Source of the DNA: Parasynechococcus marenigrum WH 8102
Lineage (GTDB): Bacteria; Cyanobacteriota; Cyanobacteriia; PCC-6307; Cyanobiaceae
NCBI RefSeq assembly: GCF_000195975.1
Contig: NC_005070.1
Location: 2,190,001-2,222,000, forward strand
DNA length: 32,000 bases
Reading direction: 5' to 3'
The first letter of the stretch is position 1; each line of letters starts with the position of its first letter. Shown here in pieces: positions 13,401-16,700 of this stretch. The translations under genes and the position numbers were made by a program. A model generated the notes under the pieces. The model searched no databases, was not told the DNA's origin, and saw nothing but the letters and a program-made list of their open reading frames with translations.

Positions 13401-13794
13401 CATCATCAACAATAAAGAGTGAACCTGTAGTACTGTCTTTCCAAAGCTCAGTACCTTCAGTATCTGAATCTGACTTCAAAATAGAGGCTTCATTGATTCC
13501 AGTAAAGCCATCATCGTTCAGATCAAAGTTAAAGGTTGCCTCATACTTGGCAATATTGGCATTCCACTCAGCACTGTCCCAACTAAGGGAACCATCCGAA
13601 TCTACCGAGTAAACGATCCACTGCTGATCTTCATGGGTTTCGCCGCCCCAGGTGTTTGACCATTTCTCAAGAACAGCAAAAATATATTTTCCGTCTTCCT
13701 CTGAGAATTCGACCTGGTATGGCTCTTGTGACCATGAGCCATATTCATCTTGGTGTCCATTATCAAAAACAACACTTCCCCCCCCATTCGTCTG
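7435..13794 (-). CDS. Giant protein, downstream segment (frame B): modules 3-12, second RTX block, PT/PS linker, octad repeats, C-terminal tail
   Basis: The frame stays open from 13794 down to the stop at 7435-7437. The 105 codons upstream of the track's TTG (13479) contain no ATG, GTG or TTG, yet they encode module-like sequence ([37 protein letters not shown]...[14 protein letters not shown]). Confidence 0.8.
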
Positions 13795-16700
13795 TCAACT
13801 TCAAAGGTTCTATTCCATCTTGAAGAATAAAGAGTTCGCCCTGATCATTTCTTGTGAGCAAATCACCAGTCGAATCAGCTTCTACTGGTATCAAATCATC
13901 AGTCGATATACCGATACTGCCATTAAGGTCTAAATCTTCACCAAACATCTTTTCACGGTCAGAGATATCTTGGGTCCACATGGCAGTAGACCAATCCAAC
14001 TGACCATCAGCGGAAACATTGACTAGCTCCCACTCCGGGCGACCACCATATTGATGCTTGACCGCCAGCAAATATCCATCGTCCTTCGCAACAACTGCAT
14101 GGGCTTTCCTAAAATCATTTCCATTCGCTTGATCGGGATCGGAGTAACCATAATCCTCATAAAGGTACGCAGGGAAGCCGCCTTCTTCGGTAATCAGAAT
14201 CGGAGAACCTCCAGCCGCAGGAATAATATAAATAGAATTCTGACTATCCATGTAGAGCTTATCGCCTACCTGCTTGAATTCAGGTTCATCAGACCTTAGT
14301 TCCATTAATGTCGAGGTATTAACACCAACAACATCGTCTCCGTCAATATCCTCACTAAATTGCCCTTCATAACCTGCTATCGCAGCATTCCAGCGTATCG
14401 AGTCGGGATCAATAACACCGGAAGACGAAAGATCTAAAATGACCCATTCTTCAAACTTCCGATCCTCACCAGTCTCCCAATCATATCCATTCCAAACATC
14501 TCTGACGGCCACACGATATCCAGTTGATGTTTTATGTAGTGCTGCAGGCATATATTGAGCATCGCCATATTCATCCTGCCAGAATATGCCGGCAGCATCA
14601 TCAATATATTGATCAGTAATCAGGATAGGGGTCTTGGAGGAGTCATTCTCAGGGAGAATAAACACATACCCCTCTTCGTCGCGATAAAGGGCGTCATTAT
14701 TATCATTATCAATGACAAGTTCATTAAACTCGCCACTCACGACAGCAAACTTGGCTGACATGTTGCTGTGTGATGTACAAAAGCCAGTGATATTGCTTAG
14801 ATTGGAAGGTGTCGCTAGGTCTGAGAACGCAAGATTCAGTGTCTGATCATCAGTGATTCCGGTCGCCACGGAGCCATCTCCTGACAAGCTGATATTTCGT
14901 GAAGAATTCTGCCCTTTTCCTTTGTCACTCAGGAAGAAGGGGTGTGACGTCGCATCGTTAACACGCTTAAAGCTATAGGTTCGGTTGATATCAAGGGTCA
15001 GATAATCAAGTGCTGCTGTTCCAGCCTGATCTTTGTAGAAGGTGTAGTAAGGGTTGTTGAGGGATCCTGGGCCAACAAAGATTTCAATATTTGGTTCATC
15101 CCCATCGAAGTCACCGCCACCTTGATCACTATCAACCGCAGCCAATTGATCACCGAACTGAACCACGAGGTTATCAATGCTGAAAATATCTCGCCGGCTT
15201 GCCGTATCACCAGCAACAAATTCTTCGCGGAGATGAATGGTCTTAATTGGATATTCATCCTCCTCATCAAGCGCGAAAGAAATATATTCCACAACGGCCT
15301 CACTCATATCATCCGGCTCCATCGTCGGCATGGAATAAATCAGTTCCTCGTTGGTGTCATAGACATCGAGATAAACATCGCGTTTGATCTCGCGACCCAT
15401 CAAGTAGAAGCCAAAGGCAGTAACCGGATTATCAAAGGCATCGCCAGAACCTGCTTCGGTCCCGGAGAAGTGAATTTTCAGACCACCTTCGCTTTGCTCG
15501 CTGGGAAGAACTTCCAAGAACTGATCACGCTGACCACCAGCCACCAAATCGGTGCCGAAGGTCATGTTGATGCCACGATCAATATTGGCACCACTGTTCA
15601 AACGGGCCAAATCAGGCTCATCTGGGCCACCACTGTGCCCGATGTTCTCAAGATTGAAGTGGATGCGGTTGCCATCGAAGGCTCCACCATCGGCAAGAAT
15701 GAATTCAATTGTTCCTGCAGCTGTGCCGTCGCCATGGTTTCCAGACGACGTAGACGGCACCAATGTTGTTCGGCCATCGGCACCGGTGGAAGCAGGGCTG
15801 AATGTGCTGTAAGGGGATGAGGTACCAGCTAGATATTGGTGATCATCTGGGGAAAAGGCGCTGGAACCAAACGAACCATTAACATCCAACCAACCATTAT
15901 CAGCTTCAAACGTAATGGAGGTTGGATCAGGCAGAGTTCCTGTAAACCATTCCTCCATTTCATGGGAATAAAAGTAGTCGTAAATATCAATATTTGAGGC
16001 AAACTTGGAACGATCAATGAAGTCATAGTCGGATCCAAAACCTGGATGGTCAATCCAGCCTGATTCATCAATCACTTCAACAATTGTGGCTCCGTCATCA
16101 CTGAAAACAGAGGAATCAACTATAAAATCATAATCACTTACGGCTTCAGAAACATAAAGACTCGCCTTTCCGGCGAGCTGCAATGATGCATTAGAATTCT
16201 CGTCGTAAATAAACAGGGAGTCACCTGTAATGGACACCCAGGGATCGACTACGTCGAAATCTATAGCGATATCATCATTGTCTCCTGAGGGACTCGGATC
16301 AAAATCATTGATGATATTCGCCCCAGAATCAAAAACAAAGAGGTCTCCACCAGCACCACCGGTATAAACATCATCACCCTCAGCGCCATAAAGAGTGTCT
16401 GCACCAGCAGCTCCAATCAGGGTGTCATCACCACCCTCACCTTCAAGCAAATTGTCATAGTCATTACCCTGAAGTGAGTCGTTCAGGAATGACCCTCTTG
16501 CATTCTCAATGACCGCTTGATAGGCGCCATCACCAAAACCAGCCAGTGTCAAACTATCGTAGGCAATCGTATATCCCTTGTATTCGTCATTAATCTTGGA
16601 AAGGAAACCACCTCCGCCAATTTCATTTTCCAATGTGGCGTTCCTCAGGTCAATGACGACCGAGCTAGAAGAATCAAATGCGTCGATCGTGTCATTACCG

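Follow-up and report, generated by a model that had tools for sequence, protein, structure and literature searches.

That marine Synechococcus encode giant exoproteins on genomic islands is well established (PMC9387257, PMC4949707). Described examples, such as SwmB of strain WH8102 and the RTX/cadherin-like proteins of RS9916, RS9917 and NB0720_010, exceed 3,000 amino acids (aa) and are highly repetitive. Here we describe a gene of similar size and repetitiveness in a stretch of 32,000 nucleotides of Parasynechococcus marenigrum WH 8102 (contig NC_005070.1, positions 2,190,001 to 2,222,000; the window in the following denotes this whole stretch). The gene lies on the minus strand, and a run of eight G (G8) breaks its reading frame into two giant open reading frames (ORFs), the downstream one being annotated as SYNW2303. 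It shares with the known giants the RTX motifs, the location in a low-GC island, the variable occurrence among strains and the detection in the exoproteome. Unlike them it is split by a frameshift, and its sequence is not detectably related to that of SwmB or of the other Synechococcus giants.

A second class of related proteins are the serralysins (PrtC, AprA, serralysin), which are substrates of type I secretion. The N-terminal 510 aa of the WH8102 protein likewise combine a protease carrying the motif HEXXHXXGXXH with an RTX beta-roll. Serralysins, however, end after approximately 470 aa with the secretion signal directly following the beta-roll, whereas the WH8102 protein continues for about 2,900 further residues. 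A third class are the poly-G/C contingency genes of Campylobacter, Neisseria and Haemophilus, in which, as in the gene described here, a poly-G run is located within the coding sequence of a surface protein and a change of one base switches the frame. In contrast to contingency genes, tract polymorphism, conservation among strains and enrichment of tracts were all tested in the WH8102 case and not found. The final class are strain-specific homopolymer frameshift pseudogenes of cultured bacteria, which likewise consist of an accessory gene with a single recent indel that is fixed in the culture and with the remainder of the gene undecayed. The WH8102 gene differs from these in that its distal half, SYNW2303, is still detectably expressed and exported. 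A homopolymer frameshift in an accessory gene is a known kind of event, and the locus is a new instance of it in an important model strain.

We consider it very probable that a real and recent +1 insertion in WH8102 has split the gene of a giant exoprotein, giving rise to a strain-level split gene or young pseudogene. The elements involved are as follows (window coordinates):

7435..17704, minus strand: reconstructed ancestral gene, 3,422 aa from ATG, 3,439 aa from GTG
13763..17704, minus strand: upstream ORF, 1,313 aa from ATG 17704 or 1,330 aa from GTG 17755, ending LTDEWGG+KCCF
13778..13785, minus strand: G8 homopolymer, the frame-breaking tract (C8 on the plus strand)
13480..13794, minus strand: start-free leader, the second half of the junction module including YIFAVLEK, conserved in orthologs
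7435..13479, minus strand: downstream ORF SYNW2303 (NP_898392.1), 2,014 aa from TTG 13479, 215.5 kDa

The upstream ORF (13763..17755 when read from GTG) terminates as EWGG-KCCF*, four codons past the G8 tract; the stop codon, TGA, occupies positions 13763-13765. In the downstream frame, which stays open from 13794 onward, the earliest ATG, GTG or TTG is the TTG at 13479, corresponding to 105 start-free codons. All 2,119 codons downstream of the junction are open, without a stop. Deletion of one G results in a single ORF of 3,439 codons with zero internal stops; a G7 tract would give GAA TGG GGG GGA AGT (E W G G S) and restore the frame. In addition, a segment of 220 aa across the junction can be aligned over its full length with 10 further copies of a module, two upstream and eight downstream. 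The junction is located inside a repeated module and relatives read through it, hence the ancestral gene was continuous; on these alignments, the two ORFs are one ancestral gene separated by a single extra G. An initial annotation of the window, made from the sequence alone, had already proposed the extra base in G8, the frame joined by removing one G, the 105 codons without a start, the termination four codons after the run and the match of the junction to a paralogous module, all of which are borne out when frames and alignments are read again. Its fragment of 1,326 residues holds if the GTG start is used; public gene calls, however, use ATG 17704, resulting in 1,313 aa, a length that includes the 4 aberrant residues after the tract.

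Comparison of the tract with related strains and metagenomes, as the initial annotation had recommended, places the change in WH8102. Five uninterrupted metagenome relatives read through the junction in frame, with W-G-G invariant (P0001, P0002 and P0003 from ENA metagenomes, P0004 from Tara, and L004, contig MDSW01061057.1, the only locus obtained from the JGI metagenome scan). The tract is interrupted in every relative, reading TGG GGT GGA AGT in L004, GGA GGG in L001, GGA GGC in L002 and GGT GGT GGA in L003, and the longest run within it is G4. The closest relative, L004, is located at the same locus adjoining menE with 92% DNA identity, and its uninterrupted ORF aligns to residues 14-1516 of the repaired protein with 90.9% identity. 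Within 4.55 kb of coding sequence, the only indels between L004 and the window are one of 3 nt and the 1-nt indel in the G tract, the latter being the sole indel that is not a multiple of three. At the tract itself, the window differs from L004 by a T to G change and one extra G. Since the tract is interrupted in all relatives, the run in the window is accounted for by a synonymous T to G change plus the extra G. Assigning the extra base to the second A of 'AA' instead, as L001 and L002 alone would allow, was rejected because L004 has GGA AGT.

The ratio of non-synonymous to synonymous substitution rates (dN/dS) relative to L004 is 0.134 downstream of the junction (only 190 comparable codons) versus 0.138-0.203 upstream. 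The similar values, together with the fully open frame, indicate a recent lesion. We thus find that, compared with intact orthologs, the gene is disabled at one site only and that, over these 190 codons, constraint distal to this site is unrelaxed, as is characteristic of a recently split gene. A junction-alignment search among GTDB species representatives returned no match, the source region apparently being masked there. A further candidate strain (P0011/L093) was rejected, as it derives from the same project as L085 and is not independent. As a separate observation, the metagenome contigs L001 to L003 (ENA, coverage about 1-2x), which carry distant orthologs, show many short gene calls, probably due to assembly errors elsewhere in the gene, while the junction itself is still read through. 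A partial ortholog of 949 aa (HAO67589.1, P0008) is listed in a metagenome-assembled genome of a 'Verrucomicrobiales bacterium'; as it shares about 95% identity with the WH8102 protein, its contig is probably mis-binned Synechococcus.

The lesion is the consensus state in every sequenced WH8102 culture. G8 is found in the finished chromosome of 2,434,428 bp and in four de novo short-read assemblies, namely ERZ23491849 (a 965-kb scaffold), ERZ23491670, ERZ922651 (SRR3471248, MEGAHIT-style k127) and Logan SRR10229854. At the consensus level, 6 of 6 WH8102-type loci carry it. The exact truncated product of 1,313 aa occurs in 94 index blocks and on 80 public contigs. No G7 allele was found at this level among the 6 WH8102-type loci or among all 7 members of the 90% cluster of this product, and none of these 7 members reads through the junction. 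The 2,014-aa SYNW2303 protein is absent from the sequence collection in an exact look-up with either L or M as first residue. The re-assemblies contain gaps of 100 N at both tandem repeats of the gene and show no single-nucleotide polymorphisms relative to the window outside the repeats over approximately 15 kb. A different homopolymer, at 1553-1559, sets them apart from the reference, with A6 in place of A7. The gaps and the A6/A7 difference identify them as de novo assemblies rather than copies of the reference. PRJNA320136 consists of Illumina HiSeq 3000 metagenomes, and in one study within this project WH8102 lysate or exudate was added to microcosms, which explains the presence of a clonal WH8102 genome. 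Two sequencing chemistries and no fewer than two culture sources agree on G8, the number of truly independent confirmations beyond the reference and one other laboratory and platform being uncertain.

The order of mutations would then be a synonymous change from GGT to GGG that created G7, followed by replication slippage extending the run to G8. Ribosomes starting at the true start would stop four codons past the run and release the 1,313-aa fragment, which carries the protease and RTX repeats and would lack the C-terminal 2,100 residues. The downstream half is still made at a low level and reaches the medium, presumably by secretion.

Evidence for the downstream product is provided by published proteomics. 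The sequence of the downstream ORF is identical to that of NP_898392.1 ('hypothetical protein SYNW2303', WH8102), and the mass of 215.5 kDa given in Tables S5/S6 agrees as well (PMC4949707); the upstream ORF is probably the adjoining locus tag. According to these tables on the WH8102 exoproteome (Christie-Oleza et al. 2015, PMC4949707), SYNW2303 was detected with 4 peptides, 5 spectra and a coverage of 3.03%. The protein is predicted there to be extracellular and is flagged as significantly increased in the '4-days co-culture' condition, where two of the three replicates contained it. The published search was done against the annotated database (PMC4949707). The extracellular detection in these tables is consistent with secretion. 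The sequence and locus tags of the upstream ORF are absent from the complete Table S6 (PMC4949707). There are 17 suitable tryptic peptides in the upstream and 57 in the downstream half, so that about one quarter of the detected peptides would be expected from the former. Neither SYNW2303 nor SYNW2304 was found in the accessible parts of two cellular WH8102 proteome supplements, and a literature search yielded no paper naming either of them.

How the downstream half might be translated can be ranked as (i) internal initiation independent of a Shine-Dalgarno sequence within the AT-rich coding region, (ii) a small amount of +1 ribosomal or transcriptional slippage at G8, which would yield full-length protein, and (iii) rare revertant cells with G7. 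The annotated TTG 13479 falls in the middle of a module.

Several points weigh against a recent split with residual expression of the distal half. The TTG 13479 is not preceded by a Shine-Dalgarno-like motif, and a promoter scan near the junction found nothing above background on the coding strand, both of which weaken internal initiation. The peptide positions of SYNW2303 lie outside the accessible portion of the supplement and do not place its translation start. Several of the short-read assemblies may share the culture of a single laboratory (PRJNA320136), the literature search found no paper on SRR10229854, and consensus assemblies cannot show minority reads with G7 or G9, heterogeneity being outside their scope. 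Finally, none of the strains with at least 97% average nucleotide identity is legible across the junction, the contig of L090 stopping 720 nt short of it. As no close strain is legible there, an origin of the lesion in the sea cannot be told from an origin in culture.

A variant of this scenario is that G8 is leaky, either by +1 slippage or by heterogeneity of G7 and G8 cells, such that a small and possibly condition-dependent amount of the full-length exoprotein (3,4xx aa) is produced. We regard this as conceivable, if rather doubtful. If true, it would explain why the exoproteome contains the downstream half only when WH8102 is co-cultured with a heterotroph, and it would add a rarely documented example of a marine picocyanobacterium in which a homopolymer switches or rescues expression. 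Two variable tracts described below, in rsmH (C6/C7/C8) and in a gene of a neighboring island (A6/A7), hint at homopolymers as a general source of variation in this lineage.

Among the explanations that compete with a split gene, recoding retains the most weight, although we judge it unlikely. Here, a +1 shift of the ribosome on G GGG GGG or slippage of the RNA polymerase would provide some full-length protein from the G8 allele. As read from the sequence, tRNA-Gly would re-pair perfectly from GGG to GGG in the +1 frame. Likewise, a downstream product exists despite the 105 start-free codons and a TTG without ribosome-binding site, and its very low abundance would fit unprogrammed slippage. 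However, the frameshift is conserved in no ortholog, all five relatives being in frame, and the A-site codon following the run is an ordinary AAG, neither a stop nor rare. RNA structure near the junction is unremarkable (121-nt fold, z = -0.51). The absence of upstream-ORF peptides from the complete Table S6 also argues against recoding, with the reservation that these would amount to only about a quarter of the total (PMC4949707). Nor would loss of RsmH help. A link in which the loss of this methyltransferase promotes +1 frameshifting or UUG initiation, and in this way rescues the giant gene, was considered and rejected: the E. coli delta-rsmH mutant is viable and shows small decreases, with +1 frameshifting 10% and UUG initiation 20% lower (PMC2831307).

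Slipped-strand phase variation, as proposed in the initial annotation in the form of an ON/OFF switch, would imply that WH8102 populations alternate between G7 (ON, full-length surface protein or exoprotein) and G8 (OFF). We consider it quite improbable. The part of the proposal that stands is the location of G8 inside the ORF of an exported giant protein, with the downstream frame fully preserved. Moreover, downstream peptides are detected at low abundance, and the lineage does show changes in homopolymer length, namely A7 versus A6 between the reference and re-sequenced WH8102 and C6, C7 and C8 in rsmH. The comparative evidence does not follow: neither polymorphism nor conservation nor enrichment of tracts is found. 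At the consensus level, no G7 allele occurs in the 6 WH8102-type loci or the cluster members. The tract is interrupted (G4) in 5 of 5 relatives, suggesting a new accident following one synonymous change rather than a maintained device. Runs of eight G or C are not enriched in the window, with 2 observed and 2.08 expected from shuffled sequence. Among tracts with a useful switching rate, eight Gs is also close to the lower limit of length, which likewise counts against phase variation. As judged from the sequences compared, a conserved and evolved device for either phase variation or recoding is not supported by any comparative criterion. If phase variation were nevertheless true, it would imply heterogeneity in a surface protein exposed to grazers or phages.

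An old and dead pseudogene, with both halves being non-functional remnants, is very unlikely. The frameshift is indeed the consensus in all assemblies, and the nearest species lack the gene, which is accessory and located in an island. However, only one lesion is found in 10 kb, dN/dS is the same downstream (0.13) as upstream, and the downstream product is listed in the exoproteome tables. The initial annotation had named a lack of downstream peptides as the mark of a fixed pseudogene; the published detection of SYNW2303 supplies such peptides.

The remaining alternative is related to a second frameshift of the window. The gene rsmH (3814..4705, minus strand) is split by one extra base in a run at 4126-4133, which is G8 on the plus and C8 on the coding strand. 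With one base removed, the protein matches TIGR00006 over positions 6-309 of 310, in agreement with the initial annotation, which had noted this one-base excess and took it to favor an error. We note that both G/C 8-mers of the window break a reading frame, hence it is the coincidence and not the number of runs that stands out. The re-assemblies that carry the G8 of the giant gene also contain the C8 of rsmH. This C8, followed by AAG, is likewise present in the different strain L091, represented by a metagenome contig with 98.7% identity to the window, while L092 (GCA_902618885.1, 97.9% identical) carries C6. The resulting RsmH fragment of 215 aa occurs in 53 index blocks and on 38 contigs. 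Intact RsmH proteins with 97-98.6% identity to the repaired WH8102 protein are found in RS9915, A18-46.1, YX04-3 and one Logan contig, and 70 of 70 readable relatives among GTDB representatives read through the site. When the tract is normalised to C7, the three broken alleles show no other lesion. Within the species, dN/dS of rsmH is 0.15-0.54, a range based on only 5-6 non-synonymous differences, versus 0.06 relative to outgroups.

In this lineage, the homopolymer of rsmH is real and mutates recurrently. Either this near-universal 16S rRNA methyltransferase has been lost repeatedly in nature, or it is toggled. As the tract mutates recurrently, it provides no evidence for a platform error. 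A homopolymer sequencing or assembly error, which would mean a true tract of G7, an intact gene and no biology, was favored by the initial annotation and could draw on two G/C 8-mers that both coincide with +1 frameshifts, one of them in a conserved housekeeping gene, and on a downstream frame that is undecayed and expressed, but it is scarcely credible given that the finished reference shares both the G8 and the rsmH C8 with de novo assemblies of the Illumina era that differ from it at another homopolymer, that the truncated products are found on 80 (giant gene) and 38 (rsmH) contigs, and that rsmH shows C8 in a distinct strain and C6 in a third. A pair of homopolymer frameshifts within a single window does not suffice as evidence of a sequencing error.

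The preferred reading, a recent split of a gene that is intact in wild relatives, has consequences for a strain that serves as the main laboratory model for open-ocean Synechococcus, including studies of motility, grazing, phage interaction and exoproteomes. SYNW2303 and its neighbor are to be annotated as halves of one serralysin/RTX giant exoprotein, and the designation 'hypothetical protein' as well as proteomic matches to both halves need to be read again. Surface-related phenotypes of WH8102 may not represent its wild lineage. Likewise, a frameshifted rsmH in the model strain and its closest wild relatives bears on the dispensability of 16S rRNA methylation in nature.

The giant protein itself is composed of a serralysin-like N-terminal unit of 510 aa, about 11 modules, an array of GGEGYDTIS repeats, a Pro/Thr/Ser-rich linker and a C-terminal ALTTAQ array. 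The corresponding features are:

16178..17437, minus strand: serralysin-like unit made up of a metzincin protease and then an RTX beta-roll (PF00413, PF00353, NF035945, PDB 1h71_P)
13045..13227, minus strand: 27-nt tandem repeat, 6.8 copies, encoding the RTX-like nonapeptide GGEGYDTIS; short-read assemblies break here
8351..8777, minus strand: 24/48-nt tandem repeats, Pro/Thr/Ser-rich linker, the second break site of short-read assemblies
7600..8330, minus strand: C-terminal array of helical ALTTAQ-type repeats, ending SGLDLETLA (PF20080, E = 6e-17)

Residues 85-437 of serralysin 1h71_P align with residues 121-509 of the query. The metzincin zinc motif (HEXXHXXGXXH) is present, with PF00413 scoring 30.3 bits versus a cut-off of 24. 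GGxGxD nonapeptide repeats are found in both ORFs (PF00353, 40.9 and 42.7 bits, cut-off 23). The score for the serralysin family NF035945, 93.5 bits, is far below its cut-off of 500. By these scores, the N-terminal unit is a distant relative of serralysins and not a member of NF035945. A C-terminal secretion signal, if any, may be located in the ALTTAQ region, at the end LDLETLA. Dedicated transporter genes (ATP-binding cassette or membrane fusion protein) are absent among the genes of the window.

The module of approximately 145 aa occurs in about 11 copies at residues ~1017-2803 of the fused protein, with the pattern W-x-V/I...DG-x-L/I-D/S-W...F-x-x-D-L-N/D-x-D-G-x-x-G. It is matched by no Pfam or NCBIfam model, and its Asp-rich loop resembles a calcium-binding motif. 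A GOS fragment (P0006), whose flank is 98% identical, carries a longer 27-nt array of different composition (GGEGYDTMY/GGEGDDSMY). The array differs in both length and unit, hence the repeat number varies in nature.

With respect to its genomic setting, the giant gene lies in a low-GC island bordered by a thioesterase gene and menE; GC content is 44-50% here and 63-65% in the flanks. The flanking genes include rsmH, ndhH, menE/C/A/F, gshB, prfB, ybeY, trpG, hisC and argS, as in marine Synechococcus. The gene is present at the same locus in L090, a 97%-identical strain, and in L004, which belongs to a 92%-identical lineage. It is absent from the four nearest species representatives, whose flanks are 84-85% identical and in which about 470 nt separate the thioesterase gene from menE.

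A second low-GC island (39-49% GC) is located at 1-3800 and contains two genes that are sulfotransferase-like or without assigned function. L091 and L092 share this island, but the nearest species representatives show no synteny with it. No convincing ORF is found at 1-1490 and 3083-3814. The A7 tract at 1553-1559 is part of this island and keeps an ORF of 261 aa (1492..2277, plus strand) open, which is located beside a sulfotransferase-like gene. In re-sequenced WH8102, A6 leads to a truncated product of 127 aa (P0022) that is found on 29 Logan/ENA contigs, whereas the wild L091 and L092 have A7. The A6 state looks like a homopolymer deletion gained in a culture lineage.

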